Positions 22,889 to 64,000 of a stretch of DNA of 64,000 nt are shown piece after piece. The stretch comes from Centroscyllium fabricii (Eukaryota). Both the position numbers and the translations under genes were made by a program. Position 1 is the first letter of the stretch; each line of letters starts with the position of its first letter. Location of the stretch: the NCBI GenBank assembly GCA_051313645.2, contig JBNRSN020000001.1, positions 420,608,001 to 420,672,000 on the forward strand, written 5' to 3'. Below the pieces are notes generated by a model, which worked only from the letters and a program-made list of their open reading frames with translations, did not search any database and was not told the DNA's origin.

Positions 22889-25800
22889 TGTAAGGGATCG
22901 GTTTAGGACCCAAACGCAGAAACACCGGAAGTCCGTAAACAGACACAAAATACCTTTATTCCCAGGACAAAATCTATATATATATATATATATATAACGA
23001 TATGATAACCACAGTGTAATAAACAATGAATGAATATAGTCAATCACAAAGAAAGCAATAGTCCAATGTCCCGAGAGCCGGTAAGCAGGAGCTCAACAAT
23101 CCAAACCCTAAGTGTTGGTAGTTGAAAAGCAAGGCCCAAAATCTGGTGCAGAAGTACTTCCAGTCCCAACAGTCCAGGGAAGATGGCTCCTGTTGTGAAC
23201 ACAGCAAGTAATCCAACTTGACCGAAACAGGCAGTCCAAAAGCAAACTCGAATAGAAACTTAACAGTAATATATAACAAAATAACAGGATGAAGAAAACA
23301 ATAGAACACTCCTACTCTCACAGCACCAGAAACCAAAACGAACTGGCAATGAACAGGTGAAGACTGGAGGCTAATAACCCTCTCCAGCTAATTGTATAAT
23401 AGGGGCTAACCAATCCAGAGAAGGACATGATAATTGGAGTAACGACTCAATAAGCTGAAAAGAACCCCTATGAACTTAAAGGGACAGTCCCAAAACCCTA
23501 AAGAAACCTCTATAAACTAAAAGGGACAGTCCACCCCATGACAGAACCCCCCCCTCAAGGGGGCGACTCCTGACGTCCCAAAGCCTCAAATGCCGGATCA
23601 GGCGGGTAAAGAAGTGTGGAGGGGAACCAATAGTCCTCGAAACACTCCTCTATGTCCGTCTCGTAATCTGACTGAGAAGAATCCTCTTCGTCTGCAGATT
23701 CCCACTCATCATCAGGTTCCTCCTCCTTGGTCAGGCTCTCCTGTAACTGAATGGCTCCGATGACTTGGCTAGATCTCTCAAGAGTCGAAGTCTCCTTGTC
23801 TGGCTGATCAAGGTGGCTCGAATGGGAGTCGCTAATGGGTTGCGTTTCCCCTATATCTTGAGTAGGACACGAAAACCTCTCCGCTGGGTCAAACTCCCTC
23901 TGCCCAACCTGTCTCTCTGGAGACCCAGAACGACTATAGTTGGCAGCAGGCGGGTCTTGGTCCGTCGCGCGAAGGCCAGAAATCTGAGCCCGTCTCAGAC
24001 AGCCCTGGTGACAGGAAAGGCTCCAGCCCAGAATATCTCCAGTGTTCCAATCAATGTGCGGGTTGTGGCGACGAAGCCAAGCGTGTCCAAGAATCAACGG
24101 AATCTGTGGTGATCGTAAAATGTGGAACTGGATACTCTCCTGATGGTCTCCAGACATCAGCATCAGCACAGGTGAGGTCTGGTGTGTCACCGTTCCCAAA
24201 AGATGACCATCAAGGGCATGGACAGGATACGACTGTGGTAGTGGCTCCTGGTCAATCCCCAGTTGCGTGACCAGATCCTCATCAATTATATTCATGTCCG
24301 CTCCAGAGTCAATACATATAATGATGCTCTGGGATCCCCTGGGGAGAAGAAATCTTGCTTGACACAAGGGTCGTGGGTTGGAAGAGAAGCCATCAGGAGC
24401 TCGGCTCATCATAACGACTCCATTGGTAGGTGAGTGCGGTCCCTTATACCTTGCTGGCCGAAACCCGGTGCGGCCCAACTGCATAGGCTCAGGACCCCCT
24501 GGCTCTACCCCTGCTGCAACCGTCTCTCTGGATGGCCCGAATCTTCCTTGGTTGCGACCCCATTGCATTGATTCGGGGGCCACTCGCTCAGGCCTAGCAG
24601 TCGCAGTCCCCCTGGGTGTCATGAATACCTCTGGAGTTTGACTAGGAGGATGTCGACCAGACCCTCCCAGACGTCTCTCACGTCGACGCGCCTGGATGCG
24701 AAGATCGATCCGGGTGGTCAGATAAATGAGTTCATCTAGGGTGGGGGGAAGGTCGTAGGAGACTAGGTCATCCTTGATATACTCGGACAGGCCATGAATA
24801 AACACCTCCCTTAAAGCGGCCTGATTCCACTCACTCCGACGAGCCCTGATACGAAAATCTATAGCGTAATTCGCCACCGTATCGTTTCCCTGGCTTAGAC
24901 TCATGAGTCCCTGGGCTGCTTCAGAGTCGAATCTCACCCTGCCAAACACCCTTCTCAATTCAGTGGAGAACGCCTCGAAAGAAAAACAAGCCTGAGTATT
25001 TCTCTCCCACTCGGCGGTTCCCCAAAGCCGGGCTCTATCCGTGAGGTGATTAATTACGAAAGCTACTCTTGTCCTCTCATTGGCAAAGGTGTGGGGCTGT
25101 AATGAAAAAAGTATGGAGCAGCTGGTGAGAAAAGGCTCACACTGCTCGGGATCACCGGCATATCGCTCTGGTACCCCGACACGGGGTTCGAGTGCGGGAG
25201 CTATTAGTTGATGCATGGGTGCTAGCCCCCCCTCTGAATCCGTGTGTGGTGGAAGCGAGACCCCTGCCGACTCCGACACTTCCCGCTGGCTCCAGGCGGT
25301 AGTCAACCCCTCTATCTTGGAAATAACTTCCCCCAAGGCCAGACCTTGGTGTGCCAGGGCCCCCTCCACATGTATCAGACGTTTCAGTGCCTCTGCTGGG
25401 TCCATGGTGGCCAGTTCGTTCTGTAAGGGATCGGTTTAGGACCCAAACGCAGAAACACCGGAAGTCCGTAAACAGACACAAAATACCTTTATTCCCAGGA
25501 CAAAATCTATATATATATATATATATATAACGATATGATAACCACAGTGTAATAAACAATGAATGAATATAGTCAATCACAAAGAAAGCAATAGTCCAAT
25601 GTCCCGAGAGCCGGTAAGCAGGAGCTCAACAATCCAAACCCTAAGTGTTGGTAGTTGAAAAGCAAGGCCCAAAATCTGGTGCAGAAGTACTTCCAGTCCC
25701 AACAGTCCAGGGAAGATGGCTCCTGTTGTGAACACAGCAAGTAATCCAACTTGACCGAAACAGGCAGTCCAAAAGCAAACTCGAATAGAAACTTAACAGT

Positions 25801-26076
25801 AATATATAACAAAATAACAGGATGAAGAAAACAATAGAACACTCCTACTCTCACAGCACCAGAAACCAAAACGAACTGGCAATGAACAGGTGAAGACTGG
25901 AGGCTAATAACCCTCTCCAGCTAATTGTATAATAGGGGCTAACCAATCCAGAGAAGGACATGATAATTGGAGTAACGACTCAATAAGCTGAAAAGAACCC
26001 CTATGAACTTAAAGGGACAGTCCCAAAACCCTAAAGAAACCTCTATAAACTAAAAGGGACAGTCCACCCCATGACA
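22889..26076 (-). mobile_element. Non-autonomous Tf1/sushi-type Gypsy element with apparently identical LTRs
   Basis: 655-bp LTRs at 22889-23543 and 25422-26076; TSD CTGGG; PPT GAGGGGGGGG; 11-nt self-complementary PBS; single internal ORF. Confidence 0.95.
23555..25405 (-). CDS. Sushi/PEG10-like Gag + aspartic protease fusion with acidic tail (616 aa); no RT, RNase H or integrase
   Basis: Kozak gccaccATGG; PERYAGD...FSLQPHTF...LSQGNDTVANYAIDF...EPMQLG; protease IDSGA...ILGHAWLRRHNPHIDW; Asp/Glu-rich tail; stop adjacent to the PPT. Confidence 0.9.
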   Translation of the reverse strand: MDPAEALKRLIHVEGALAHQGLALGEVISKIEGLTTAWSQREVSESAGVSLPPHTDSEGGLAPMHQLIAPALEPRVGVPERYAGDPEQCEPFLTSCSILFSLQPHTFANERTRVAFVINHLTDRARLWGTAEWERNTQACFSFEAFSTELRRVFGRVRFDSEAAQGLMSLSQGNDTVANYAIDFRIRARRSEWNQAALREVFIHGLSEYIKDDLVSYDLPPTLDELIYLTTRIDLRIQARRRERRLGGSGRHPPSQTPEVFMTPRGTATARPERVAPESMQWGRNQGRFGPSRETVAAGVEPGGPEPMQLGRTGFRPARYKGPHSPTNGVVMMSRAPDGFSSNPRPLCQARFLLPRGSQSIIICIDSGADMNIIDEDLVTQLGIDQEPLPQSYPVHALDGHLLGTVTHQTSPVLMLMSGDHQESIQFHILRSPQIPLILGHAWLRRHNPHIDWNTGDILGWSLSCHQGCLRRAQISGLRATDQDPPAANYSRSGSPERQVGQREFDPAERFSCPTQDIGETQPISDSHSSHLDQPDKETSTLERSSQVIGAIQLQESLTKEEEPDDEWESADEEDSSQSDYETDIEECFEDYWFPSTLLYPPDPAFEALGRQESPP

Positions 26077-29496: not shown

Positions 29497-32400
29497 TGTA
29501 GCGCCGGCAGGCCTAGGAACCACACGTGAGCCAGAGCTAGAGAAAACACAGATTTATTACACCAAGTAAAACAAGAAAGAGAGTGAACCACTCGCAGCAA
29601 TCGTATTTAAACAGTCCCGCGGTTGGTGACGTCGTCACGTCACCCGGATGAGCGGTGCTTTGCTCCGCGGAGTCCCCGTGGCGGATTAGATGTCTCAGTG
29701 GGCGTGCCGCCACACAGCTCCCCCCAGAATCCGTCCGGGAGGAATAGTGACAGAGTCTATGTTGTGCCGTTGGGGTGGCCGGATGATGCGGCCGGACCGT
29801 GTTGTTCGTTGCTCCTGGTTCTGCGGTGGAGTGTGGGCGGGTTTTGTTGCGGGAGGGCGACCGCGTTGTGGTGGTTGTGCGGGGACCGTGGTCTCACCCG
29901 CTATCACATGTGCCGGCTTGAGCCGGTCTATTGTCACAGTGTCAGTCCTGTTGCCCATTTGTAACTCGAAAGCTTTAGCTCCCGCCCGAAGCACTCTGTA
30001 GGGGCCATCGTAAGGTGGCTGTAGTGGAGATCGGTGTCCGTCGCGCCGGACGAACACGAATTTCGCGTTTTTACTGTTGTCCGGCACCCGAGCTGCCGGC
30101 TCTCCGTGCCGGGCCACTGGTAGTGGCTGGAAAGCTCGTGCCGGGTTGGCGAAATCTTTTAAATACTGGTCGGCTGACCAGGGTGCATTGGGCTCAGCCA
30201 GGAACTCGACTGGCACCGTTAAAGTTTGGCCGTAGACGAGCTCCGCTGCCGAGGCGTTGAGGTCTTCTTTGACTGCCGAGCGCAGCCCGAGGAGGACCCA
30301 TGGAAGGCGGTCGGTCCACGATGCTTCTTTTAGTGTGGCCCGTAGTGATGCCTTCATCGAGCGGTGGAACCGTTCACATAGGCCGTTCACCTGTGGGTGG
30401 TATGCGGTGGTTCGGTGTAGTGTCACCCCGAGGTCACGGGCGATGGCCGCCCATAATGCCGACGTAAATTGGGGTCCTCTGTCGGAGGTGATGTCTGTGG
30501 GCACGCCGAAGCGGGCGACCCAGGTGGCGATGAACACCCTGGCCAAGTCCGTGGTGCCGGTGGCGGTGAGGGGGACTGCTTCTGGCCAGCGAGTGTTGCG
30601 GTCGACCATGGTCATTAGGTGCGTGTGGCCCCGGGATGGCGGTAGTGGCCCGACGAGATCGATGTGGACATGGTCAAAACATCTGGCCGGCACTTTAAAA
30701 TTTTCCAGCAGTGCCCTGATGTGCTTATGCACTTTGGAGCGCTGGCAGGCTATGCAGGAGCTGGCCCAGGCGCGGATGTCCTTGCGCAGGCCACACCATA
30801 CGAATCGGGCCGATATTAATTTAATGGACGCGCGGGCGCCGGGGTGGGACAGGCCATGGAGGGTACTAAATATGTGTCGCCTCCAAGCGTGGGGTATGAC
30901 TGGCCTGGGTTGCGGCAAGGATACGTCGCAGCAGACGATGGTGGCAGCGGGGCCGTGCGCGATATTGGCCAAGTGGAGGCCGGGGAGATTGGTTGCTGCA
31001 TTGAGTAGGTCAGGGTCGGCCAGCTGGTCAGCGGCCAGCTGGGCGTAATCGACCGCCATTTGGGCGGCGTTAATGGTGGGGCGTGAGAGGCAGTCAGCGA
31101 CCACGTTGTCGCGGCCGGAAATGTGCTGGATGTCGGTTGTGTAAATTCCGACACGGCCGCGAGTTGGCGCTGCTGCCTGGCCGACCAGGGTTCAGCGACC
31201 TTAGCCATCGCAAACGTGAGTGGCTTGTGGTCGCTGAAGGCTGTGAAGTGGCGGCCCTCCAAGAGGAAACGAAAGTGTCGCACCGCCAGATGGAGAGCGA
31301 GTAGCTCCCTATCAAAGGCGCTGTATTTAACCTCTGGGGGTCGGAGTTGCCGGCTGAAAAAGGCCAGGGGCTGCCACGAGTTGCCGGTCCACTGCTCAAA
31401 TACGGCCCCGACCGCGTGGTCGGAGGCGTCGGTGGTTAGGGCTACTCTGGCATTGGGCCTAGGGTGGGCTAGGAGAGTGGCATTTGCCAGGGCGATTTTA
31501 GTTGCGGTGAAGGCGGTGGCGGCGTCGGCCGTCCACTCGACCGCATCCTTGTTGGACTGGTATAAGGGGGCCATGAGAGCGGCTGCTCCCGGGATAAAGC
31601 GGTTATAAAAATTAACCATGCCTAAGAATTCCTGCAGCCCGTTAATGGAGTGCGGGCGGGGGAATTCTTGTACCGCCTGCACCTTAGAGGGCAGGGGTAT
31701 GGCCCCTGTTTGGGAAATGCGGTGGCCGAGGAAGTCAATAGTCTCGAGGCCAAATTTGCACTTGGTGGGGCTTAAGATAAGGCCGTGATCGGCCAGGCGC
31801 TGGAACAGGGTCCTGAGGTGCAGGAGGTGTTCCTGGGGGGAGGTGCTGGCCACGAGGATGTCGTCTAGATAGACGAAAATGAACTTCAAGTCCCTTAGGA
31901 CTGAGTCCATGAGGCGCTGGAAGGCCTGGGCTGCGTTTTTAAGGCCGAAGGGCATCCTAAGGAACTCGAAGAGTCCGAAGGGGGTAATGACGGCCGTTTT
32001 AGGAATGTCCGCTGGGTGCACCGGAACCTGGTGGTAGCCACGCACCAGGTCGATCTTCGAAAAGATCGTACAGCCCGCTAATCTGGCGGAAAAATCCTGG
32101 ATGTGGGGTACAGGGTACCTATCCGGGGTAGTGGCGTTCTTAAGGCGGCGGTAGTCGCCGCAGGGGCGCCAGCCTCCGTCGGGCTTGGGGGCTATGTGGA
32201 GCGGAGAGGACCAGGGGCTGCTGGAGCGGCGGATAATGCCGAGTTGCTCCATGGTGTGGAACTCGGTGCGCGCGATCTCCTGCTTGGCCGGGTCGAGCCT
32301 ACGGGCGTGGGCATGGACGGGCGCGCCTGTGGTTGTGATAAAATGTTCCACCCTGTGTTTGGCCTTGCGGGCGGTGAACATGGGGTTGGTTAGGGCGGGG

Positions 32401-33840
32401 AACTCTGCCAGGAGTGTGCCATAGGCATCGGAGTCCCTGGAGCGGCATTGGGCTGCCGCGTGGGCCAGGAGTGCGGGCCCTGTGGAGCATGGGATGGTCG
32501 TCATGGTATTTATATTTACCAAGCGGCGCCGAGTTACGTCGACCAGTAGGCCGCAGGCACAGAGGAAGTCTGCCCCGAGGAGGGGTGAGGTGACCTGGGC
32601 CGTTATAAAATCCCAGGTGTACGCGTGGCTTGCAAGGGTAATGGTTAACTTGCGGGTGCCGTACGTTTTTATGTTGGAGCCGTTGGCTGTCGCTAGTGGC
32701 GGGCCCCGGGTGCCTTGTTTGGTTTCTGCAGGGGAGGCTGGCACGATGCTGTGCTGCGCGCCTGTGTCGCAGAGGAACCTGAGGCCTGTGCCGCTGTCTG
32801 TGGCGAAGAGCAGTGCTCCTGTGTGGCCTACAGACATGGTGGGGGCTGGGTTGGGCCGTGGCTTAAACGCGCATGGCTGGACGCAGCGGTGCGCTTTGTG
32901 TTCGAACCGCGTGTGGTAGTAGCACCAGCCGGTGCTAGAGGAACGCGGTTGTCTAGGTGGGCGCGAGGCCCTAGGTTCAGGCGTAAAGTTATGCCTGGGG
33001 GGTGATTGGCTGCGCTCTACCGATGCGGAGTTAGGGTCGCACGTGGTTGAGCGGGTGCGCTGGGCCTCCATGAGCCTGTCGGCTTCCTCTCCGAGCTCGT
33101 CATCGCTCCGATGGCCAAGGGCCGCCAAGGCCGGTCTGATGGCGCAGGGTAGTTTAAGGAGGAAGACGGTGCGGAAGAGGGAGGCCGGGTTGGGTGTGAG
33201 CGCTTGCATCTGACCTAAGAGGTCCGATGGGTCTGCGTCCCCGAGCTCGGGGAGGTCGAGGAGCTGGCAGTCGCGCTCAAATTGGGAGGGGGCCTTAAGA
33301 GTTTCATACTTGCCTGCGACGGGCACGCGCTGTATTTTTGACCACATCCGATCAATCGTCGTCTGTGGAAGGGCTGAGAACACCAGGTCGTAGCGGTCGT
33401 CCCCTTGAATGCCATGTGTGCGGCAGCTGGTCTCGATACACATAAACCAGGCCGCTGGCCGTTGCTCCCAGAACTCGGGTAGAGTTAGTCCACGTCCGGC
33501 GTTCTGTCCAGCTCCTTGCGTTCGTGGAGCTTGGTTTCTTGGGTTTACCATGCTTTCTTAAAAAAGTCTTTGGCTGGTGGTCCCAGATCCTGCGGCAGCT
33601 TTTTCTTCACTGGAAGTCGTTCCAGTTCGGGGTCACCACTGTAGCGCCGGCAGGCCTAGGAACCACACGTGAGCCAGAGCTAGAGAAAACACAGCTTTAT
33701 TACACCAAGTAAAACAAGAAAGAGAGTGAACCACTCGCAGCAATCGTATTTAAATAGTCGTCGCGTCACCCGGATGAGCGGTGCTTTGCTCCGCGGAGTC
33801 CCCATGGCGGATTCGATGTCTCAGTGGGCGTGCCGCCACA
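29497..33840 (-). mobile_element. Full-length CsRn1-clade Gypsy retrotransposon
   Basis: LTRs at 29497-29714 and 33640-33840 (net 17 bp shorter on the right); TSD ATAT; tRNA-Trp PBS TGGTGACCCCG; Gag CHCC (CYYH...C...C), DTGA, YLDD, TDAS, IN with GPY; frameshift near 31140. Confidence 0.95.
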
Positions 33841-33855
33841 ATATTCCATATTCAT

Positions 33856-34305
33856 GCTGGAGCGATTCAGCTATGGAGAGAGTTGGACAGGCTGAGGTTG
33901 TTTTCCTTGGAGCAGAGAAGGCTGAGGGGGGACCTGATAGAGGTGTACAAAATTATGAGGGGCATAGATAAGGTCGATAGAAAGGAACTTTTCCCCTTAG
34001 TAGAGGGGTCAATAACCAAGGGGCATAGTTTCAAGGTAAAGGGCGGGAGGTTTAGAGGGGATTTGAGGAAAAACTTTTTCACCCAGAGGGTGGTTGGAAT
34101 CTGGAACTCACTGCCTGAAAGGATGGTAGAGGCAGGAACCCTCACAAATTCAAGAAGCATTTAAGTGAGCACTTGAAATGCCATAGCATACAAGGCTACG
34201 GACCAAGTGCTGGAAAATGGGATTAGAATAGATAGGGCTTGATGGCAGGTGCGGACACGATGGACTGAAGGGCCTCTTTCTGTGCTGTATAACTCTATGA
34301 CTCTA
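33856..34305 (+). mobile_element. CR1 3' fragment abutting the last splice acceptor
   Basis: LFSLEQRRLRGDLIEVYKI...FFTQRVV; tail AACTCTATGACTCTA ends about 15 nt before exon start 34321. Confidence 0.88.
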
Positions 34306-34320
34306 TTCTTTCCTCTGCAG

Positions 34321-35441
34321 ATTCCAGTGAATGTTTGCAGTGCTCAGAAAACCACTGGTCTGAGGAAGGAAGTTCAATGTGCCAGGATAGAACTAAAGAG
34401 TTTCTTCAATGGAGAGATGCTCTTTCTGTAGTGTTAATCACACTTGCCACCTTAGGAGGACTTATAATATGTATAATAATCATATTGTTCACAAAACATC
34501 TGAGTACACCAGCTGTGAAAGCTGCTGGAGGTTGGATGTGTTACATAATGCTGTTCTCACTGTTATGCTGTTTTGTCAGTGTTGTGTTGTTTTTTGGAGA
34601 ACCGTTTGATTACATTTGTAAAATCCGACAACCACTTTTTGGTATAAGCTTTACACTTTGTGTTTCCTGTATTTTGGTGAAATCTTTTCGGATCATCCTG
34701 GCATTTAGTTTTAATCCAATTATCCGTAAAAAGTTGAAGTATGTCTATAAACCAGTACCCATTATAATTGTTACCACAGGAATTCAAGTGATCATTTGTT
34801 CAACATGGTTATCTTTGAATACTCCAAAACCTGTGCAAAATAGAAACATCCCCAAAATCATTGTGCTGTTATGTGATGAGGGTTCCCATGTAGCATTTGC
34901 TGTAATGTTAGGATACATCATTTTTCTTGCATGTGTCTGCTTTGTTCTTGCTTTTAAGGGTAGGAAGGCTCCAGAAATGTATAATGAGGCAAAATTTATC
35001 ACATTTAGCATGCTCGTTTACTTAATTGTGTGGATTTCTTTTGGGGTTGTTTATAGTAACACAGAAGCTAATAACAGGTATTTTCCAGTGATTGAATCAA
35101 TTGCAATTTTAGCATCAATCTATAGCATTTTATGCTGCCATTTCTTTCCAACGTGCTATATAGTTTTGTTTAAGAAAGAAAGTAATGTTGAGTCAAGTTA
35201 CTTGACACGTGTAAGAGAGCATTTCAAGCAGAGAGGACAGTTTGTGTGTCCAACTGCAAATATAAAAAGAAACTCTGAAATTTCTACTGAAGAACAGCCT
35301 GCCGCCTTGGTACAAGTGAGAGCAGATTCTGAATTTGAATGTCAAGTTAATCAGAAAACGAATCATACAAACCAGATCAAGAATGGCCAGAATCAAACAC
35401 TTGACTCAAACTGCCTGAGAAAAAGAAGTAAAAGCTGGTAA
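34321..35441 (+). CDS. gprc6a-like: Class C GPCR terminal exon, 7TM domain and C-tail
   Basis: tcctctgcag|AT completes codon GAT; DSSECLQCSENHWS...TPAVKAAGG...CKIRQPLFGISFTLCVSCILVKS...AFKGRK...YNEAKFITF; stop TAA at 35439-35441. AFKG and TPxVKxxGG motifs are GPRC6A-like; exact orthology untested. Confidence 0.92.
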
Positions 35442-40800: not shown

Positions 40801-41574
40801 AGGCGGTTACCTTAGCATTACGGTCTAAAGGCCTCCCTGCCTCCCGCTGGCAGGAGGTCCTCCCAGACGTACTCCACTCGATCAGGTCGCTCCTGTGCAC
40901 CGCAACCAATGCCACTCCTAACGAGAAGATGTTTGTGTTTCCCCGCAAATCAACTTCAGGAGTGTTCCTACCTTCATGGCTCTCCACCCCAGGATCTGTC
41001 CTACTACGGCAGCATGTGAGGGGCCACAAAATGGATCCCCTTGTGGAGGCAGTACACCTACTGCACGCGAACCCACAGTACGCGTACGTCAAGCACGCCG
41101 ATGGGCATGAGGACACTGTGTCCATAAAGGACCTTGCCCCAGCAGGAAGTGACGGCATCCCACCCTTACCACCCCCAGAATTACCTGCCACACCCCCAGC
41201 GCATGGGTATGCCCAGGAGGGCACCACAGACACCAGGCTTGAACCCGAGGTACTGTTGCACCAGTCAGGACGGACTATCACACCCCCGGACAGACTAAAT
41301 CTGTAGAAGGGGTGAATGTGATGAAATATATATACTTTCATCAGCCTGTGTTTCTACCTTAGACTTACCTGTAATGTGCGTGTATGTACCGCCCACTTTT
41401 CTATTGTATGTATTGGGCTCCGCCCCCTGTCTTTTGCCATATAAAGGACTCCTGAACTGTATGAGTCATTCAACCTGGAGAACTCAGTGTGGAATCATGT
41501 ACCACAGTTCTTAGCTATTAAAAGCCTATCTTTGAGTCCTCAAACCTCTCATTTGTGTTATTGATGGCCCACCA
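37889..41574 (+). mobile_element. Gypsy (YLDN-RT lineage) with most of the 5' LTR and gag deleted
   Basis: Starts with TGTGATGAAATAT, the first 13 nt of the 3' LTR (41317-41574), fused to the gag zinc knuckle; TSD GGAGT/GGAGG; PR, RT YLDN, RH and IN fragments; PPT GAAGGGGTGAA. Confidence 0.9.
38262..38657 (+). mobile_element. HE1-like V-SINE inserted in the Gypsy protease
   Basis: GGGGCGGCACGGTGGCACAGTGGTTAGC head, box B GGTTCAAATCC, V-domain, CR1-type tail; splits NGNKV|KCLVDCGS. Confidence 0.9.
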
Positions 41575-42461: not shown

Positions 42462-45400
42462 AAATGCAAGAAGTCACACAACACCAGGTTATAGTCCAAC
42501 AGTTTTATTTGAAATCACAAGCTTTCGGAGCGCTGCTCCTTAAGTTCTCTTCTTTCACCTGAGGAAGGAGCAGCGCTCCGAAAGCTTGTGATTTCAAATA
42601 AAAGTGTTGGACTGTAGTGCATGCAGGCCTGAAGAACCACGCGGGAGCCGGTAAGACAGAGAACACTTGTTTATTACATTACAGGGGCCAGGTAGAAAAG
42701 AGACTGATCCACCTGGAGCAGCCTTATTTAAAGGGCCCGCGGTTGGTGACATCACCACGCCGGAAGTCCCGGTGACGTCTTTACGCCGGAAGTCACGGTG
42801 ACGTCATCACGTCACCCGATGGGCGGGGCCGTGCCCTGCAGTACTCCCGAGGCGGATTCGATGCCTTTGGTGGGCGTGTCGCCACACAGCTCCCCCCCAG
42901 AATCTGTGAGGGAGAATAAAGTGAAAATAAAAAATGAGGGAGAATAAAGTAAAAATAAAAAATGAGTCTCAAGCGAGGCGTTGAGGTGGCCGGATGATGC
43001 GGCCGGCACGTGTTGTGCACTGCTCCTTGTTCTGCGGTGGAGTGTGGGCGGGTTTTGGTGCGGGAGGGCGTCCGCGTTTTGGTGGCTGCGCGGGGACTGT
43101 TGTCTCACCCGCTATTACGTGTGCCGGTTTGAGCCGGTCTATCGAGACGGTTTCAGATCTGTTGCCCATTTTGAGTTCGAAAGCCTTAGCTCCCACCCAA
43201 AGCACCCTGTACGGTCCATCATACGGTGGCTGTAGTGGCGTTCGATGTGCGTCGTGGCGGACAAACACATATTTGGCGTTCTTAATGCCGTCCGGTACAC
43301 GTGCTGCCGGCTCTCCGTGCCGGGCCACCGGTAGTGGTTTGAACGCTCGTGCCTGGTTGTTGAAGTCTTTGAGGCACTGGTCAGCTGACCAGGTAGCGTT
43401 AGGTTCTGCGAGGAACTCACCTGGTACGGTTAGGGGTTGGCCGTAGACGAGTTCCGCCGCTGATGCGTGCAGGTCTTCTTTGGCCGCTGAGCGTAGGCCG
43501 AGCATTACCCAGGGCAGGCGGTCTGTCCAAGTTGCGTCCTTCAGACTGGCCCGCAGAGATGCTTTGATGGAGCGGTGGAACCGTTCGCAGAGTCCATTGG
43601 ACTGTGGGTGGTAAGTGGTGGTTCGGTGTAGGGTTACCCCAAGTTCACGGGCGATGGTCGCCCATAGTGTCGACGTGAATTGGGGGTCTCTGTCCGACGT
43701 GATGTCGGTGGGTACGCCGAAACGCGCGACCCAGGTGGCGATGAAAGCCCTGGCCAGGTCCGTGGTGCTGGTAGCGACGAGTGGGACTGCTTCTGGCCAG
43801 CGAGTGCTGCGGTCGACCATGGTCATGACGTGTGTGTGTCCCCGTGATGGAGGTAGTGGTCCGACCAGGTCGATGTGGACGTGGTCGAAGCGTCTAGCTG
43901 GTATGGTGAACATTTCCAGCGGTGCCTTGATGTGCTTGTGCACCTTGGCGCGCTGGCAGGCAGTGCAGGCGTTGGTCCAGGCGCGGACATCCTTGCGCAG
44001 GCCGCGCCAGACGAAACGTGCCGAAATCAGCTTGCTGGACGCGCGGGTGCCAGGGTGGGACAGGCCATGAAGGGTCTGGAAAATGTGTCGCCTCCATGCG
44101 TGGGGGACGACGGGTCTGGGCTGCGGGAGGGAGACGTCGCAGCAGACCGCGGTGGCTGTGGGCCCGTGTGCTACGCTGGCCAAGTGCAGGCCGGGGAGGT
44201 TGGTAGCTGGGTCGAGCAGGTCAGGGTCGGTTAGTTGGTCGGTTGCCAGTTTGGCGTAGTCGACCGCCGTTTGTACGGCGTTGATGGTGGGACGTAACAG
44301 GCAGTCGGCGACCACATTGTCGCGGCCGGCGATGTGTTGTATGTCCGTGGTAAATTCCGACACGGCCGCGAGCTGGCGCTGCTGCCTGGCCGACCAGGGT
44401 TTGGCGATCTTAGCCATTGCGGACACAAGCGGCTTGTGATCAACGAAGGCTGTAAAATGTCGGCCCTCCAAGAGGAAGCGGAAGTGGCGCACTGCGAGGT
44501 AGAGAGCGAGTAGCTCCCTATCGAAGGCGCTATACTTGACCTCTGGGGGCCGAAGTTGCCGGCTGAAAAAGGCCAAGGGTTGCCAGGAGTTGCCGGTCCA
44601 CTGCTCGTAGACCGCTCCGACAGCGTGGTCGGAGGCGTCGGTGGTGAGGGCCACTCTGGCATTGGGCCTAGGGTGGGCTAGGAGCGTGGCATTGGCCAGG
44701 GCGGTTTTGGTTGCTGTGAAGGCTGTGGTGGCTTCGGCCGACCACTCGACCGCAGTTTTGTTGGACTGCCCGCGTGTGGCCTGGTAAAGGGGTGCCATGA
44801 GAGCGGCTGCTCCTGGGATGAAGCTGTTATAAAAATTAACCATCCCTAGGAATTCCTGCAGCCCCTTGATGGAGTGCGGGCGGGGTAATTCCTGGACCGC
44901 CTGCACCTTGGAGGGCAGGGGTATGGCCCCGGTTTGGGAAATGCGGTGGCCGAGGAAGTCGATCGTCTCGAGGCCAAATTGACATTTTGAGGGGCTTAAT
45001 ACGAGACCGTGTTCGGTCAGGCGTTGGAACAGGGTCCTGAGATGGAGGAGGTGTTCCTGGGGGGAGGTGCTGGCCACGAGGATGTCGTCTAGGTAGACGA
45101 ACATGAACTGCAAGTCCCGTAGGACTGAGTCCATGAGGCGTTGGAAGGCCTGGGCCGCGTTTTTCAGTCCGAAGGGCATTCGGAGGAATTCGAATAGTCC
45201 GAATGGGATGATGACGGCTGTCTTAGGGACGTCCGCCGGGTGCACTGGTACCTGGTGGTAGCCCCGTACCAGGTCGATCTTAGAAAAGATCATGCAGCCC
45301 GCTAGCCTGGCGGAGAAATCTTGGATGTGGGGGACAGGGGACCTGTCTGGGGTGGTGGCGTTGTTGAGGCGGCAGTAGTCTCCGCAGGGGCGCCAACCAC

Positions 45401-47236
45401 CACCCGGTTTGGGGGCGATGTGGAGGGGGGAGGCCCAGGGGCTTTTGGAGCGGCGGATTATGCCGAGTTGTTCCATAGTGCGGAACTCGGTACACGCGAT
45501 CTCCAGTTTGGCCGGGTCCAGCCTGCGGGCGTGGGCATGGACGGGAGGGCCGGTGGTGGTGATGAAATGCTCCACCCCGTGTTTGGCCGTGCGGGCTGTG
45601 AAGGTGGGGTTGGTGAGTGCTGGGAACTCCGCGAGGAGCGTGCCGTACATGTCGGAGTTCCGGGCTCGGCAGTGTGCCGCTGCGTGGGCCTGGCGTGCCG
45701 GCCCTGTGGAGCATGGGATGGTCGACATGTTGTGGATGTCGACCAGTCGGCGCCGGGTCATGTCGACCAGGAGGCCGTGGGCGCAGAGGAAGTCTGCCCC
45801 GACGAGGGGTAGTTTGACCTGGGCGGTGATGAAGTCCCAATGGTACATGTGGCCTGCTAGCTTGATGGTGAGCTTGCGGGTGCCGTACGTTTTTATTTTG
45901 GAGCCGTTTGCGGATTCGAGTGGCGGGCCCCGGGTGCCTTATTTGGCTTCTGCGGGGGAGGCTGGCACGATGCTGTGCTGCGCGCCTGTGTCGCAGAGGA
46001 ACCGGAGGCCTGTGCCACTGTCTGTGACGTAGAGCAGTGCTCCAGAGTGGCCTACAGACATGGTGGGGCTTGAGGCAGGTTGGGGTTTGAAAGTGCAGGG
46101 CTGGACGCCGCGTTGCGCTTTGGATTCAAACCGGGTGTGGTAGTAGCACCAGCCGGTGCCCGATGTGCGCGGCCTTTTGCGGGGTCGCGTTGGCCTGGGT
46201 TCAGGCCTGGGGTCGGACTTGGGGTGCGCGTGGCGGGGCTCGGATGCCGTGGCAACGGGCTCGCACGTGGCGGAGTGGGAGCGCTCGGCCGTCATGAGCT
46301 TGTTGGCCTCCTCAGCCAGCTGTTCTCCGCTGTGGTGGCAGAGGGCCTTCAGAGCCGGTCTGACGGAGGGGGGCAGTTTGAGGAGGAACAAGGTGCGCTT
46401 GATGGAGGCTGGGTCTGAGTTCAGCGCTTCCATTTGGGCCCAAAGTTCCGATGGGTCTGCGTCCCCGAGTTCGGGGAGGTTGATGAGCTGGCAGTCGTGC
46501 TCAAATTGGGAGGGGGAGAATTTTTTAAGCAGCGCGGCCTTAAGGAATTCGTACCTGCCTGCTGCTGGTGCACGCTGTAACGTCGGCCACATCCGATCGA
46601 CCGTGGTCTGTGGTAGGGCCGCGAAGAGCAGGTCGTAGCGATCATCCCCCTGGATGCCATGGATGTGGCAGCTGGTTTCGATGCAGAGGAACCAGGCCGC
46701 TGGGCGTAGCTCCCAGAACTCTGGTAGAGTTAATCTGTGGCCGGAGTTCTGGCCCAGTCTTTGAGGTCGCGCAGCTTGGCTTCCTGATGGCATGTTGGTT
46801 GGAAGTGCTCTGAGGCAGCTTGGCCCTCAGTCCTGCAGCAACTGCTTCATTTTTGTTCTCTTGGAAGACGTTCCAAGTACGGGGTCACCACTGTAGTGCA
46901 TGCAGGCCTGAAGAACCACGCGGGAGCCGGTAAGACAGAGAACACTTGTTTATTACATTACAGGGGCCAGGTAGGAAAGAGACTGATCCACCTGGAGCAG
47001 GCTTATTTAAAGGGCCCGTGGTTGGTGATGTCACCACGCCGGAAGTCCCGGTGACGTCATCACGCCGGAAGTCGCGGTGACGTCATCACGTCACCCGATG
47101 GGCGGGGCCATGCCCCGCAGTACTCCCGAGGCGGATTCGATGCCTTTGGTGGGCGTGTCGCCACAGGACTATAACCTGGTGTTGTGTGACTTCTTGCATT
47201 TGTCCACCCCAGTCCAACACTGGCACCTCCACATCA
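42462..47236. mobile_element. Palindromic Penelope-derived hairpin element with a hammerhead motif, split by the Gypsy at 42613-47165
   Basis: Arm 42462-42541 is the reverse complement of 42565-42612 plus 47170-47201; tcac-CTGAGGA-a-ggag/cagcg/ctcc-GAAA-GC-TT-gtga at 42555-42591. Confidence 0.8.
42613..47165 (-). mobile_element. Full-length CsRn1-clade Gypsy with one nonsense codon in the protease
   Basis: 274-bp LTRs at 42613-42886 and 46892-47165 (about 10 differences); TSD GGAC; Trp PBS; gag-PR at 46793-45939, TAA, then in-frame pol to 42969 (YLDD, RH, IN). Confidence 0.95.
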
Positions 47237-48384: not shown

Positions 48385-50413
48385 TTCCAATCTATATGTA
48401 GATTAAAGTCACCCATGATGACTGCTGTGCCCTTATTGCACGCATCCCTGATTTCCCTTTTTATGCCATTGTGGCGACACGCCCACCAGCAACATCGAAC
48501 CCGCATCGGGAGCGCTGCAAGACGGTCCCGCCCACCAGGCGGCGTGCTGACGTCACCGCGACTTCCGGCGTGATGACGTCGCCAGGTGGAGACCCGACAG
48601 TGACGTCACCTACCGCGGGACCTTTAATTACCTGGGCTCCAGGTGGCTCAGTCTCTTTTCCACCTGGCCCTAGCTGTAGTAACATTAAATGATAACTTTC
48701 CGACTCATCTGTGTCCAGTGTGGTTCTTCGGCCCTGCATGCCTCTACAGTGGTGACCTCGATACTTGGGATGAATTCCAAGAGAACAATGAAGCAGTCGC
48801 TGCAGGACTGAGGGCCAAGCTGCCTCAGTTGAATCGCAACCACCATGCCAGCAGGGATCGAAACAGCACGCCACCAAAGACGGGGCCAGCACTTCGGCAA
48901 AATCCCAAACCTACCTGAGTTCTGGGAACTCCGTCCAGCGGCCTGGTTCCTCAACACTGAGAACACCTTCCGCATCTATGGCGTGCAGGGGGACGATCGC
49001 TACAGCCTGCTCTTCGCAGCCCTTGCGCAGCCCACAATCGACCGAATGTGGGACTCCATCGAGCAAGAACCAACTGCTGGCAGGTATGAAACGCTTAAGG
49101 CCGCGCTGCTCCAAAAATTTACCCCCCCCATTTTTGAGCGCGACTGCCAGGTCATTAACCTCCCCGACCTGGGTGACGCAGACCCCACCGACCTGTGGGC
49201 CCAATTCGAAGCGCTTAACCCAGATCCGGCCATTCTCAAGCGCGCCTTGTACCTCCTTAAACTGCCCCCCTCCGTCAGACCGGCTCTGACGGTCCTGGAG
49301 CACTACTCGGGCAAACAACTAGCTCAGGAGGCAGACAAGCTGATAAAGGCCGAGCGCACCCGCGCCACCATGCACCGTAATGCTGCCGCTCCACCGGAGC
49401 AGTACTACGCGCACCCCAGGCCCGGGCACAGGCCCCAAGCCAGAGCGGTGCGGACCCACAAAAAAACACGCACTACGGGCCCAGGCTGGTGCTATTACCA
49501 CACCAGGTTCGAAGCCAAAGCGCAGCGCTGCGTCCAGCCCTGCACCTTCAAACCCCAAACCAGCCCAGGCCCCACCATGTCCGTAGGCCGCTCCGGAGCA
49601 CTGCTCTTCGTTACAGACAGTTGCTCAGGCCTCCGCTTCCTCTGCGACACAGGCGCGCAGCACAGCATCGTGCCAGCCTCCCCCGCAGAAACCAAGCAAG
49701 GCACCCAAGGCCCACCACTCGAAGCCGCAAACGGCTCCGAGATAGTTACGTTCGGCACCCGCCAGCTTACCATCAAGCTGGCAGGCCACACGTACACGTG
49801 GGACTTTATCACAGCCCAAGTTAAAATACCCCTACTCGGGGCCGACTTTCTGTGCGCCCACGGCCTCCTGGTCGACGTTACCCGACGCCGCCTGGTCGAC
49901 ATCCACAACATGTCGACCATCCCATGCTCCAAAAGGCCGGCACACCAGGCCCACGCAGCGGCCCACTGCCGAAGCCGGAACTCCGACACGTACGCCACGC
50001 TGCTCGCGGAGTTCCCAGCCCTCACCAACCGTACGACGGACCATTCAGAGTGCTTCGGGCGGGACCCAAAACTTTTCAAATTGAAATGGGCAATAGAGCC
50101 GAGACTGTCTCAATTGACCGGCTCAAACCGGCACACGTAATGGCGGGCGAGACAACAGTCCCCGCACAGCCACCAAAGCGCGGATGCCCTACCGCACCAA
50201 ACCCCGCCCACACTCCTACGCAGAACAAGGAGCACCGCACGACACGTGCTGGCCGCATCATCAGGCCACCTCAGCGCCTCGCCTGAGACGACACGTGCAG
50301 GCTACATCATCAGCCTGCCTCAACATCGCATTTCGGAACATGGAACAGCGCACGACACGTGCGGGCCACACCATCAGGCCACCTCGGCAAACCGCCGGAC
50401 ATTCTATGTTATA

Positions 50414-51278
50414 CAGGTTGAGCACCGTTAATCGGGCACGGGCGGGACCAGGACCGTGCCGGGAAATGGAAAAAACTGGGAGAACGAGTTTGGACACTGC
50501 ACATGCGCACCAGTCAAAATGGCAGCGCGCATGCGCGCAACATTGGTATTGGCTGGCTCGCGCATGCGCAGATCATCCAATATTGGCCGCTGCGAAGTTT
50601 TTTGATGGGCTCAGGCTTTTGTGGCGTTCCGTTTAGGTTTTAGGGCTGTCGGGCAGCAGTGAAAGGCCGGTCTTGCGGGGGTGGCAGGAGGGTGGCGCGG
50701 GTCGGGTCGGAAGGAGGAAGGCGCGGGTCGGGGGGGGGGGAAAGGAGGGTGGCGCGGGTCGGCGGGGGGGCAATTTATCCAATCCCCTGTTTTGCTTTCA
50801 ATTGTAAGAGGTCACACGGCGCCAGGCTGTGGTCCAACGGTTTTAGTTGGGGTCACGGGCTTTCGGAGCGCTGCTTCCCCGTCAGGTGATGGGGGAGCGG
50901 CGCTCCGAAGGCCCGTGATTTCGAGTGGGACTTTTGGACTACAGCCTGGTGCTGTGTGGCTTCTTACAATTGTCCATCCCAGTCCAACACCAGCACCTCC
51001 ACATCATGGCTTCAATTACAGTTATCGATAAAATAACCGGCGGCCGTATTGAATTATCTGCGCATGCGCTAACCTTCCGGCGACGCATGCGCAGATCATT
51101 CAAAACACCCGCAGCTGTTTTGAATGATCTGCACATGCGCTCGGCGCATGCGCAGTTCATTCGTTGAAGCCACGATGGCGGCTGCCATTTTGCGCATGCG
51201 CAGTGCAGTCGGGGCAATTTGTGCCGGCAGACTGAAGCTGCCGGCTATTCGGTTACCGGATTAACGGTGCTCAACCTG
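50414..51278. mobile_element. Tc1/mariner (Tigger/pogo-like) MITE
   Basis: 20-bp perfect TIR CAGGTTGAGCACCGTTAATC at 50414-50433 and 51259-51278; TA TSD on both sides. Confidence 0.88.
50800..51007. repeat. Penelope-derived palindromic hairpin, A>G hypermutated
   Basis: Colinear with 42466-42612 plus 47170-47236, with 23 A>G and 7 T>C changes in the stem. Confidence 0.85.
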
Positions 51279-52869
51279 TACTTGAAAATTTGTGTTTGCT
51301 CTCCTTTATGTCTCCTTCTCCTCTAGGTCTAGCCTCGCTCTCCCTCACGGATTCTGGGGGGGAGCTGTGTGGTGACACGCCCACCAGCAACATCGAACCC
51401 GCATCGGGAGCGCTGCAAGACAGTCCCGCCCACCGGGCGGCGTGCTGACGTCACCGCGACTTCCGGCGTGATGACGTCGCCAGGTGGAGACCCGGCAGTG
51501 ACGTCACCTACCGCGGGACCTTTAAATACCTGGGCTCCAGGTGGCTCAGTCTCTTTTCCACCTGGCCCTAGCTGTAGTAACATTAAATGATAACTTTCCG
51601 ACTCATCTGTGTCCAGTGTGGTTCTTCGGCCCTGCATGCCTCTACACCATCCCCAACCTCAGCATTACTGTTTGGGGGTCTATACACCACTCCCACTAAC
51701 GTTTTCTGCCCTTTGGTATTTCTCAGTTCGACCCATACAGATTCCACATCATCAGAGCCAATGTCTTTTCTTACAGTTGTGTTAATCCCCTCTTTAACCA
51801 GCAATGCTACCCCACCTCCCTTTCCTTTTTGCCTATCTTTCCTGGATATTGAATACCCCTGGATGTTGAGTTCCCAGCCTTGGTCCCCCTGGAGCCATGT
51901 TTCCGTAATTCCAATCATATCATATCCGTTAACCTCTATTTGCGCTGCTAATTCATCCACCTTGTTACGAATGCTCCTTGCATTAAGACACAAAGCCTTC
52001 AGGCTTGTTTTTTTAATGCTCTTAGACCTTTTAGAATTATTATTTACTATGGCCATGTTTAATTTCCACCCTTGATTTCTCTGACTGCCACCTTTATTTC
52101 TCTCCTGCCTGTCTTTTTCTTCGATCCTTGTTTCGCTTTCCTTAGTCTCCCTGCTCAGGTTCCCAACCCCCTGCCATTTTAGTTTAACCTCCCCCCCACA
52201 ACAGTGCTAGCAAACCTCCCGGCAAGTATATTGGTCCCCTTCTGGTTCAGGTGTAAACCGTCCGGCTTGTACAAGTCCCAACTTTCCCAGAAGCAAACCC
52301 AGTGATCCAGGAAACTGAAGCCCTCCCTCCTGCACCAACTCTTTAGCCACACATTAATCTGCTCTATTCTCATGTTCCTATGCTCACTAGCCCGTGGCAC
52401 AGGAAGTAATCCAGAGATCACAACTTTGAAGTCCTGCTCTTTAATCTGGTACCTAGCTCCCTGAATTCTTGCTGCAGGACCTCATCCCTCTTTTCACCTA
52501 TGTCATTTGTACCAATGTGTACCACGACCTCTGACTGTTTTCCCTCCCCCTTGAGAATGCCCTGCAGCCGTTCAGTGACATCCTTGACCCTGCACCAGGG
52601 AGGCAACAAACCATCCTGGAGTCACGTCTTTGGCCACAGAAACACCTATCTGTTCCCCTTACGATTGAATCCCCTACTACTATTGCTCGCCCACTCTTTT
52701 TCCTCCCTTTCTGAGCAGCAGAAGCACCCCCAGTGCTAGGAAGTATGCTGCTACTGCCTTCCCCTGGTAAGTCGTCCCCCTCAACAGTATCCAAATCGGG
52801 ATACCTGTTAGACAGGGGGATGGCCACAGGGGTCCCATGTACTACCTGCCTACCCCTTCTGCTCTGCCT

Positions 52870-60570: not shown

Positions 60571-60606
60571 TAAGTGGTGGAAGATATAGCCAGGCAGGGA
60601 TGCTTC

Positions 60607-63600
60607 TGTGGTAACCGTTGATATACAGTTATTTACCACCATAATATTGTGTCCAATATTATCTGTATGTGTAGCGGTCGGGTGCATGATGCAACTGTCC
60701 TGTGTTGCGACACTGTCGTGGGGCCAGGTCAGCCACACCTCTAACTCCTCCCTCAGGTGAGTGCCTTATAGGTGGGGACTGACCGGCCCCCATTCATTCT
60801 GTACCTGATGTTCGATTGGAGCGTAGCTCCATTGTAAGCTAATAAAAGCCTTGAGTTAAGGTAACTACTCGTCTTTAGTTTTATTAGATTATTGACGATA
60901 CGTCAATTTTATTAGCTTAAAAATTTGAAATGGAGAGCGGCGCTGTGAAACCCGAAAAGCTGGACATTAGTACACAGGACCCAGCCGCCGCCAACACCTT
61001 CGAACACTGGTTCGGCCTCCTGGAGGCCTACATGGACGCCGCCAAGGCTACAACCGAGGGGAACAAGTTACAAGTTCTCCGATCCAGAATCTCCAGCCGG
61101 GTATTCTCTTTCATCCGTGACGCCAAAACGTACCCCGATGCGATGGCTAAACTGAAGAAATGCTACGAGCGCCCAGTCCACTCAGTCTACGCCAGACACG
61201 TGCTCGCGACCAGACCACAACTACCGAGTGAGTCAAATGAGCAGTTCGAGCAGGTGCTCCAAGCCCTGGTCCGTGTCTGTGGCTGCCAACCACGGACGGC
61301 AGAAGAAGAGGCGAACCTCCTCATCCGGGACGCCTATGTAATGGGACTCAGGTCCGCAGAGGCCCGCCAGCGGCTGCTGGAAAAAGACTCTTTGACTTTG
61401 GAGGAGGCGATCTCTATCTCCAACTCTGTGGACGGCGCACGCCGCAAACTGCAGGCGTACGGCGGCCCAAACCCACAAGCTTACGACACGTGGGCAGCCC
61501 CACAACGGGTCGAGACCCCTGCGATGGCAGCGGCAGCTGCGAAACCGCCGGCGGAGAAAAGATGCTACTTCTGCGGCCAGGGACTACACCCACGGGCGAA
61601 ATGCCCAGCAAAGACCGCGACCTGCGAGAGGTGCTCCAAGAAGGGACACTATGCCAAGGCCTGCAGATCAGCCCCGGCGTCCAGCTCCAGGTACAACAGC
61701 GCGGCCTGTGAAAGCTCTCAGGTAAGCTGCAACTGCAGCGCGACCCAGCAACGGTCCGGGGGTAGAGTACAAGCGCCCCCATCTCCCACACTGAGGCGGC
61801 AGAGGCCGGCTGCACCCACGGCACGCCAAACTCAGCCACGGCCGGCCATGCGCGACCCTCCAACGCCAGCATCCCGCCCAGCGCGGCCCGCTGCGTGCGA
61901 ATCACGGGCACCGCCACCGCATCTACAGCGGCCCGCTGCGTGTGAACCACGGGCGCCGCCATCTTGTCCGCAGCGGCCTGCCATGTGCGACCCCCGGCAC
62001 CGCCATCTTGTCTTCAGCGACCAGCCATGTGCGACTCGCCGGCGCCGCCGTTTTGTCCCCAGAGGCCGGCCATGTGCGAACCACGGGCACCGCCATCTTG
62101 TGTACGGCCCCGACCAGCGGAGGGCTCACACACACACTCACACACTTCGGCCTCAGCTATCCCGAAAGTTGATCAGGCTAGGCCGCACACCCAATCAAAT
62201 TCCATGATGGGGATTAAAGTTAATTGCCATGTCACGAACTGCCTGTTCGACACCGGAAGCACAGAGAGCTTTATTCACCCTGATACAGTGCAGCGCTACG
62301 GACTGCAGATCCGGCCCACGCGCTACCAAGTCTCCCTTGCTTCACAGTCCCACACCGCGGACGTCACTGGCTACTGCTCCGTCACGCTCACAGTTAAGGG
62401 CAGCGTGTACTGTAATTTTAAACTGTACATTCTGAAGCAGTTGTGCTCCCCAGTCTTACTCGGACTGGATTTCCAGTGCCACCTTGAGAGCCTGACAATG
62501 GAGTTCGGCGGGACCCTGCCCCCCCTCACCGTCAGTAGCCGGGACAATCCCTTCCCAAAGCGGAGCCCGGCCTGCGGCCTCTCCACCCTGAAAGTCGACC
62601 ACCCCTCACTGTTCGCCAACCTGGACCCCAACTGCAAACCCATTGCTACCAAGAGTCGGCGTTACAGTGCAGGGGATCGGACGTTTATCAGGTCGGAGGT
62701 CGGGCGTATGCTAAAGGAGGGGATAATTGAAGCCAGCACCAGCCCCTGGCGGGCCCAGGTTGTAGTGGTGAAGACTGGCGAGAAACACCGGATGGTTATC
62801 GATTATAGCCAGACCATTAACCGCTACACCGGGCTCGACGCCTACCCCCTCCCCCGCATCTCGGAAATGGTTAACCAGATCGCCCAATATAAGGTGTTCT
62901 CCACAATCGACCTTAAGTCGGCGCATCACCAACTCCCAATCCGGAAAGCCGACCGCCCGTACACCGCCTTCGAGGCGAACGGTCGGCTCTACCACTTCCT
63001 CCGGGTCCCCTTCGGCATGATCAACGGAGTGTCAGTGTTCCAACGGGAGATGGACCGCATGGTTGACCAAAACGGGTTGCAGGCCACCTTCCCCTACCTG
63101 GACAACGTGACTATCTGCGGCCATGACCAGCAGGACCACGATGCCAATCTGGCCAAATTTCTCGACACGGCGAAATGGCTGGATCTCACATACAACAAAG
63201 ACAAGTGTGTCTTTAGTACAGATCGGCTCTCCATCCTCGGATACGTGGTGGAAAACGGGGTCCTCGGCCCCGACCCACAGCGTATGCACCCCTTACAGGA
63301 ACTGCCCCTTCCTCACAACCCCAAAGCCCTGAAGAGATGTCTAGGATTTTTCTCTTATTACGCGCAATGGGTTCCCCAATTCGCGGATAAGGCCAGACCG
63401 CTCCTCAAGGCTGCCGTCTTCCCCCTCTCGGCAGAAGCCCACACGGCGTTCGCCCGGATCAAGGAAGATATCATCAAGGCGACCATGCACGCCGTTGATG
63501 AGTCCATCCCTTTCCAGGTGGAGAGTGACGCTTCGGACTTTGCCCTTGCCGCCACCCTGAATCAGGCAGGCAGGCCCGTACCGTATTTCTCCCGCACCTT

Positions 63601-64000
63601 ACAGGGACCCGAAATTCGCCACTCTGCAGTGGAAAAGGAGGCTCAGGCCATCGTGGAGGCCATGCGCTACTGGCGTCATTACCTGGCCGGTAAGCGTTTT
63701 ACCCTGCTCACCGACCAACGGTCGGTCACGTTTATGTTTAACAATAAACAAAAGGGTAAAATCAAGAATGATAAGATCCTGCGGTGGCGGATCGAGCTCT
63801 CGACTTACGAGTACGACATTCTTTACTGACCAGGCAAACTCAATGAACCCCCGGACGCACTGTCCAGGGGAACGTGCGCCAGTGCCCAGCTAGTCCGGCT
63901 GAAGGAACTCCACGATCGCCTCTGTCACCCGGGTGTCACCAGACTTGCCCACTTCGTAAAATCCCGTAGCCTCCCCTACTCCATCACGGAGATCAAGGCT
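60607..64000 (+). mobile_element. Gypsy (YLDN-RT lineage), running off the window end
   Basis: 5' LTR at 60607-60905; self-complementary PBS; gag ATG at 60930, CCHC, PR DTGS, RT YLDN, RH; 1-nt loss near 61996; CGA>TGA stop at 63827. Confidence 0.93.

Follow-up and report, generated by a model that had tools for sequence, protein, structure and literature searches.

A Gypsy lineage of Centroscyllium fabricii with a primer-binding site complementary to its own LTR, which likely primes reverse transcription with the 5′ end of its own RNA

The element that begins at position 60607 of the window, by which we mean the whole 64-kb stretch of Centroscyllium fabricii DNA analysed, raises the question of what primes its reverse transcription, the sequence after its 5′ LTR being of a non-tRNA type. 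The element lies on the plus strand, as do all of its features given below, and is preceded by a target-site duplication, GCTTC (60602-60606), that is repeated after the 3′ LTR, past the window edge. The 5′ LTR (TG..CA, 299 bp, 60607-60905) is identical at 294/299 positions to the 3′ LTR (window-equivalent positions 65151-65449), and gag, with two CCHC knuckles, and pro-RT-RNase H occupy 60930-63826, with a frameshift near 62200 and a stop at 63827. The presence of a polypurine tract (PPT), the Gypsy domain order (gag, then PR-RT-RH-IN) and TG..CA LTRs with a target-site duplication place the element in Ty3/Gypsy; the best sequence match in the PDB is Ty3 (E 4e-47). The lineage does not carry the TGG-starting complement of a tRNA 3′ end that marks tRNA-primed Gypsy elements. 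In the window element, the CA that ends the LTR (60905) is followed by one A (60906) and then, without TGG, by the primer-binding site (PBS), TTTTATTAGCTTA (60907-60919), the gag ATG at 60930 lying 10 nt past the PBS. This agrees with the original prediction, as does the finding that the PBS is the exact reverse complement of 13 nt in the same LTR, TAAGCTAATAAAA (60835-60847, hereafter the arm), with AATAAA at 60841-60846.

Perfect inverted repeats of at least 13 bp with a loop of 20-120 nt occur four times in the 64-kb window, and two of them fall exactly at PBS positions. A second element of the same design is present at 12810-17358 (minus strand, target-site duplication GCCAA), the PBS (17065-17078) and arm (17133-17146) of which are, as had been claimed, exact complements over 14 nt. 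The arm motif A(A/T)TAAAAGCC, proposed as common to the lineage, is also present in a solo LTR (4248-4534, minus strand, target-site duplication GGGAG, arm TAAGTCAATAAAA) and in the 3′ LTR of a third lineage member (41317-41574, plus strand, ATTAAAAGCC). Minimum free energy (MFE) folds of both window leaders, i.e. those of the 60607 element and of the second element, include the arm-PBS helix, which would close the remaining R and U5 (60848-60905) in a loop for which inner stems are predicted, TTGACG-ATA-CGTCAA at the LTR end among them; a small predicted hairpin, GGAGC-GTA-GCTCC (60818-60830), adjoins the 5′ side of the arm. A further complement of the arm, TTTTATTAGATTA (60877-60891), which is imperfect and could compete with the PBS, lies in U5 of both LTRs of the window element, and similar imperfect U5 complements are seen in related families.

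Genome-wide, the pattern TAAAAG-N50-75-CAWTTTTA gave 187,911 matches compared with 8,984 for a reversed control; there are ~180,000 self-complementary junctions in the 7.2-Gb genome, and the lineage's gag follows 27 of the first 30 pattern matches. Junctions were sampled from these first 30 matches, from 60/70 further listed places and from the window, and 86 were anchored, 7/150 loci being not anchorable on account of deletions, point changes or a replaced LTR. The search pattern selected pair positions 1-5 of this own-genome sample and left positions 6-13 unselected. Pairing over 13 bp is perfect in 66/86 copies, with 18 arm/PBS sequence types, all Watson-Crick; when arms were shuffled against PBSs (2,000 times), on average 4.95 and at most 15 copies were perfect at positions 6-13, versus the 66/86 observed. 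Four of the 20 imperfect copies had misplaced anchors and are perfect once anchored correctly. Covariation is found at positions 6, 8, 9, 10, 12 and 13 (mutual information 0.4-1.8 bits), with several double transversions, and positions 7, 9 and 11 appear to be sequence-constrained beyond pairing. The claim that sequences differ while pairing is kept thus holds for 18 types among the aligned genome-wide copies, with mutual information at six positions, and the covariation establishes, at the level of sequence, the pairing of the arm with the PBS.

The boundary of pairing is sharp, position 13 being Watson-Crick in 83/86 copies and position 14 in 29/86 (21.5 expected). The register is invariant in 86/86, with CA/A/TTTT opposite AAAA/G and the duplex beginning one base past the LTR's CA, facing a G.A mismatch; the unpaired 1-nt spacer A, at 60906 in the window element, faces the G after the arm in 86/86 copies (the anchor was selected for CAAT), and the base after the arm is G in 86/86. 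The PBS starts with TTT in 82/82 correctly anchored own copies, a pattern-selected feature, and likewise in the gag-selected loci shown. Where the 3′ LTR was located (51/58 longer stretches), the PBS complement stands only after the 5′ LTR, barring one tandem copy. A host small RNA is rejected as the primer, since the 18 PBS sequences each match their own LTR. Tandem copies sharing an LTR that is followed by the PBS were seen at L116 and at C335:139983538-139984705 of C. fabricii, and are like the tandem Tf1/Tf2 insertions described in the available text of PMC11042837.

The design extends to other animals. Among the best 120 of 1,158 Pol matches, the nearest named proteins are those of a catshark and rays, and relatives with 47-83% identity come from echinoderms, corals, a mollusc, a spider, a crayfish and nematodes. 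Of 94 metagenome or metagenome-assembled genome (MAG) loci, 54 had a match to the gag N terminus and 50 had enough upstream DNA; these were anchored on gag, with pairing at the anchor not assumed. Pairing over 12-18 bp (threshold at least 12; shuffle maximum 11) was found in 37/50 and over <12 bp in 13/50, proportions that are not an unbiased census, as about ten loci represent one family and the gag queries came from loci with the design. CA plus one base precedes the duplex PBS in 32/37 relatives, and GCC or ACC follows the arm in 28/37. That other families might lack the complementarity is, with 37/50 relatives having the design, not borne out. Several bacterial contigs among the MAG contigs (L231-L243) carry complete animal-type Gypsy elements, which are probably host contamination; in viral contigs the self-priming pattern gave 14 matches, none confirmed.

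With respect to where the RNA starts, a TATA-like box (60767-60772) has conserved spacing among copies, being placed at −68 to −72 from the arm start in 69/82 copies of both major subgroups, and is followed after ~30 nt by an initiator-like CATTC. In the window element ~68 nt separate the box from the arm start and 80 nt separate it from the predicted cut, in place of the ~60 nt of the original prediction. The initiator A (C-A-TTC, 60796), 29 nt past the box, is the putative transcription start and primer 5′ end; that of the second element (17184) is also 52 nt from the arm 3′ end. Covariation, TATA spacing and the over-copied products described below together suggest a self-primer of 52 nt (60796-60847), with a cut at AAAA/GCC between 60847 and 60848 of the window element.

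Before the search it was predicted that over-copying of an attached primer would leave an LTR-PBS junction followed by the reverse complement of the upstream LTR. Such products number 730 in one subgroup and 400 in the other (1,130), with 0 in reversed controls, amounting to ~0.8% in the first subgroup (730 versus ~94,000 normal junctions). Among 120 examined (the first 90 of one subgroup and the first 30 of the other), 27 endpoints lie at the initiator A or one base on, i.e. 52-54 nt upstream of the arm 3′ end, 34 lie earlier, 4 lie within 2-40 nt beyond and 55 run through U3; the pile-up at the initiator has a crude uniform-null p of 7e-24. In the window element's own family, three products (L297, L309, L376) end at the initiator A, with an extension length of 52. 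The 27 initiator-ending products rejoin at least 16 different sites, and 25 were mapped inside the element, with acceptor sites 158 to ~4,050 nt past the PBS, three of them antisense. Exact microhomology is 0-2 nt at 20/25 mapped junctions, several of which have imperfect homology, and two gag sites that recur, likewise imperfectly homologous, account for 11/27 initiator-ending junctions. At the commonest acceptor site there is a mismatch between acceptor and last copied base, as expected of a run-off end, and 103 copies genome-wide end with GAAT plus a non-template base. The 55 read-throughs comprise 39 that stop at the LTR 5′ end, 10 that enter the PPT and 6 unresolved.

These endpoints coincide with ends of reverse-transcription intermediates, ends that are absent from chromosomal DNA, and their pile-up in the genomic copies argues strongly that the RNA starts at the initiator A. 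A switch of plus-strand DNA onto intact RNA could likewise give rise to the inverted blocks, in which case they map the start and not the identity of the primer. As a separate observation, 39/120 products consist of an LTR and then inverted R and U3 up to the LTR 5′ end; these long palindromic insertions are likely a fold-back of plus-strand strong-stop DNA.

A more Tf1-like geometry would have a primer of only 13 nt, with the RNA starting at the arm or with a second cut trimming the 5′ piece. The sharp 13-bp boundary is consistent with this, as are the arms of some relatives, which begin with an initiator-like TCAGT or TTAGT, and a clear TATA box was not seen in the relatives. In C. fabricii, however, the TATA box is 68-72 nt before the arm, with none ~30 nt before it, and the over-copied products are unbroken through the 39 upstream bases to the initiator, and we regard a 13-nt primer as rather improbable. 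It is very unlikely that the primer is instead the 3′ repeat of genomic RNA, of the same or a partner molecule, with the cut following the AAUAAAA of that repeat. Being part of R, the arm is present in two copies per RNA, and the 10/55 read-throughs that continue into the PPT indicate that the 3′ repeat can also serve as template; nevertheless, 27/65 products other than read-throughs terminate at the initiator A, where the 3′ copy has no end, and 39/55 read-throughs stop at the LTR 5′ end, as self-fold-back of strong-stop DNA predicts. With respect to the over-copy evidence only, we give scant credence to a post-insertional origin of the inverted blocks, by fold-back template switching in host DNA replication, for which a 13-bp inverted repeat ~60 nt apart is a possible substrate and with which the scatter of 34/120 endpoints would fit, given that the initiator A and the U3 start, where 27 and 39 of 120 products stop, are not ends of genomic DNA, and that the acceptor sites are internal to the element, at distances of up to 4 kb and in either orientation.

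Our overall reading is that the lineage lacks a tRNA primer site, pairs its PBS with 13 bases of its LTR and likely primes with a ~52-nt piece of the 5′ end of its own RNA. The self-priming originally proposed draws support from the covariation of 18 types, the invariant register and the same design in distant relatives; the internal geometry, unlike that of Tf1, draws it from the TATA-like box spacing, CATTC and the products ending at the initiator A. In the proposed mechanism, transcription would begin ~30 nt past the TATA box, at the initiator A, and the arm, 39 nt downstream of the start, would pair with the PBS, closing U5 in a loop of 46-62 nt. The RNA would be cut at the duplex end, AAUAAAA/GCC, probably by the element's RNase H as in Tf1, the register being compatible with an RNase H-type cut there. 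From the 3′ end so created, RT would then synthesize across the spacer A and U5, and the first transfer may proceed by a jump to the 3′ repeat through the ~15-nt remainder of R, restoring the arm and the poly(A) signal. Plus-strand strong-stop DNA would normally copy only 13 nt of the primer; in aberrant cases, copying would run on toward the RNA 5′ end and may so give the inverted block. The 13-nt stop is perhaps set by RT active-site spacing or by the predicted hairpin 5′ of the arm; the Ty3 RT active sites are ~13 bp apart in the available text of PMC5371799, a match to the duplex length that is suggestive only.

The idea that copying of the primer templates the PBS and yields compensatory pairs found no support. 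Pair position 11 is unchanged in 92,473 cases, with 451 arm-only, 1,310 PBS-only and 9 double changes (6.4 expected by independence), and purine doubles at pair position 9 number 2; this test is weak because the tested positions appear to be sequence-constrained. Five of the 9 position-11 doubles are Watson-Crick; the 3′ arm is wild-type in L111 and L250, L249 has a different 3′ change, no 3′ LTR was found for L248, and L251 is a real rare family. The PBS side of position 11 has 2.9 times more variants than the arm (1,310 versus 451), the contexts being reverse complements, and 32 PBS-side cases include 29 single substitutions there, 24 of them transversions.

The hexamer in the arm is AATAAA in 49 copies and ATTAAA in 36 (85/86), with the PBS changing in step. 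This toggle supports, for C. fabricii, the proposal that the arm doubles as a putative poly(A) signal, but the proposal is not general: the last six arm bases of relatives are often ATTAAA or AATAAA, but also GTTAAA, TTTAAA, CATAAA, TGAAGA and TAGTAA. Judged from these arms, the overlap with the poly(A) signal is common, not obligatory. A search for poly(A)-tailed retrocopies gave a single genomic copy, with an A-run 16 nt past the hexamer that may partly be flank. In MFE folds the hexamer is paired when the PBS is present and open without it, and it is plausible on this modelling that the duplex masks the 5′ LTR poly(A) signal in C. fabricii. The HIV-1 polyA hairpin is an example of 5′ poly(A)-site masking in retroviral leaders. 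In both cases the hexamer is base-paired in the 5′ copy (here by prediction), whereas here the partner strand is the PBS itself and is present only after the 5′ LTR. That the duplex serves only to hide the 5′ poly(A) signal, another host RNA being the primer, would accord with AATAAA/ATTAAA in 85/86 copies and with the complement standing only after the 5′ LTR, yet is very improbable, given a leader of ~22 nt with no TGG, 18 PBS sequences that follow their own LTR, a fixed register at LTR+2 that would be unneeded and several relatives that keep the duplex without a canonical hexamer.

Self-priming of the kind we propose has precedents. It is described as established for Tf1 and inferred for Tf2, Tj1, Sushi and Tcn1 in the available text of PMC7175516, PMC4600332, PMC5341516 and PMC11042837. 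As in Tf1 and Tf2 of S. pombe, Tj1 of S. japonicus and the Tf1/Sushi/Tcn1 chromoviruses, on what those texts describe, the PBS here comes right after the 5′ LTR and has its complement in the element's own 5′ LTR RNA, with no tRNA, and it covaries with that LTR between families. RNase H cleavage of Tf1 RNA falls between bases 11 and 12 (PMC7175516, available text), giving an 11-nt primer, whereas here the primer would be ~52 nt, with the arm ~39 nt after the putative start and a predicted hairpin upstream. In ~50% of Tf1 products the cDNA ends 3′ in a single-stranded DNA copy of the PBS (PMC11042837, available text). The lineage further differs from Tf1/Sushi in that only 13 nt would normally be copied, the arm overlaps the poly(A) hexamer and the loop is 21-68 nt. 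It also has no detectable chromodomain: one 1,408-aa frame free of interruptions matched no chromo family at E<=0.1, and window 13141-14547 matched none at E<=0.001. We do not file it in Tf1/Sushi, because there the primer is the first ~11 nt of the transcript, whereas here the start appears to be 39 nt upstream of the arm, and because the chromodomain is lacking. The window also holds what looks like the classic Tf1/Sushi-like geometry, in an internally deleted element (22889-25880, minus strand) with a Retrotrans_gag/Ty3_capsid gag, in which an 11-bp self-complement of the post-LTR sequence lies at ~25870-25880, immediately preceded by TCATT and at a distance of 449 nt from the end of the LTR.

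Outside these chromoviruses, self-priming is predicted for the plant Ty1/copia TAR lineage (Houba, Osr-1), in which an LTR region is complementary to the PBS (PMC6317226, available text); that lineage is of plants and the Copia superfamily, whereas the present one is an animal Gypsy. The fungal GalEa Conserved Hairpin Site, the Skipper polypyrimidine site and bivalve TRIMs have no tRNA-type PBS (PMC5445492, PMC5006619, PMC6934838, available text). For GalEa and Skipper no LTR complement is reported in those texts, in contrast with the covarying LTR complement here, and bivalve TRIMs have an internal hairpin, whereas the present lineage carries the complement within its LTR. Full-text literature searches brought up no account of this design; subscription journals, Repbase Reports, GyDB pages and supplements may hold one.

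In a quick RT-RH tree, the relatives, window elements and named proteins form one 70-row group (SH-aLRT 100), apart from the window's TGG element, in a set the rows of which were chosen as nearest relatives of the query, with no named clade references, none from Tf1 or Sushi, and with self-type loci L161, L223 and L225 and TGG outgroups L240 and L243 left out (the last four having matches of <200 aa). Distant outgroups (L236, L240, L243) carry a TGG PBS. The lineage may be linked to Cigr-1, Mag or a MolGy clade. The names Cigr-1, Mag and MolGy are those of clades in the available text of PMC6238403; 'Selfy', a candidate name for the clade, has no occurrence in the available text of related literature, including PMC12440569, and 'Cigr' occurs in literature without a PBS description in the text examined.

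On balance we favour, though with less confidence than self-priming as such, a broader interpretation in which a large, chromodomain-less, animal-wide Gypsy clade acquired self-priming independently of Tf1, with an internal cut at a conserved AAA/GCC, a capped ~52-nt primer and, in many members, a duplex hiding the 5′ poly(A) signal; one helix would set priming, the plus-strand stop and 3′-end choice, with over-copies recording the start. In the available literature self-priming is tied to chromoviruses of the Tf1/Sushi type and to a single lineage of plant copia elements; this would add a Gypsy group widespread among animals, with Pol relatives spanning sharks, rays, echinoderms, corals, molluscs, arthropods and nematodes (best 120 of 1,158) and ~180,000 junctions in one genome. 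It bears on the order of tRNA priming and self-priming and on the frequency of switches, matters raised in the available text of PMC3601003, and would supply a second substrate for RNA-duplex cleavage, one that differs in geometry and for which the cut is precisely predicted. Self-priming would make the element independent of tRNA supply and spare it silencing by tRNA fragments, and the tRNA-free PBS accounts for the failure of PBS-based annotation to pick up such elements. In a large genome, moreover, aberrant copies can serve to map a start site and primer without RNA.

The surroundings of these insertions include other Gypsy elements, with a DUF7041 gag (window 42611-47165, 29695-33557 and 48470-51646), which fall outside the self-priming group in the quick RT-RH tree; a PBS of the TGG type is present in those at 42611 and 48470. 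A search of the 64-kb window with Rfam at gathering thresholds gave no match, including at 42503-42603, where there is a 39-bp perfect inverted repeat that resembles Penelope-type termini. Exons of a family C GPCR gene (ANF_receptor, 7tm_3) at 40-1203 and 34293-35441 reveal a host gene around the insertions.
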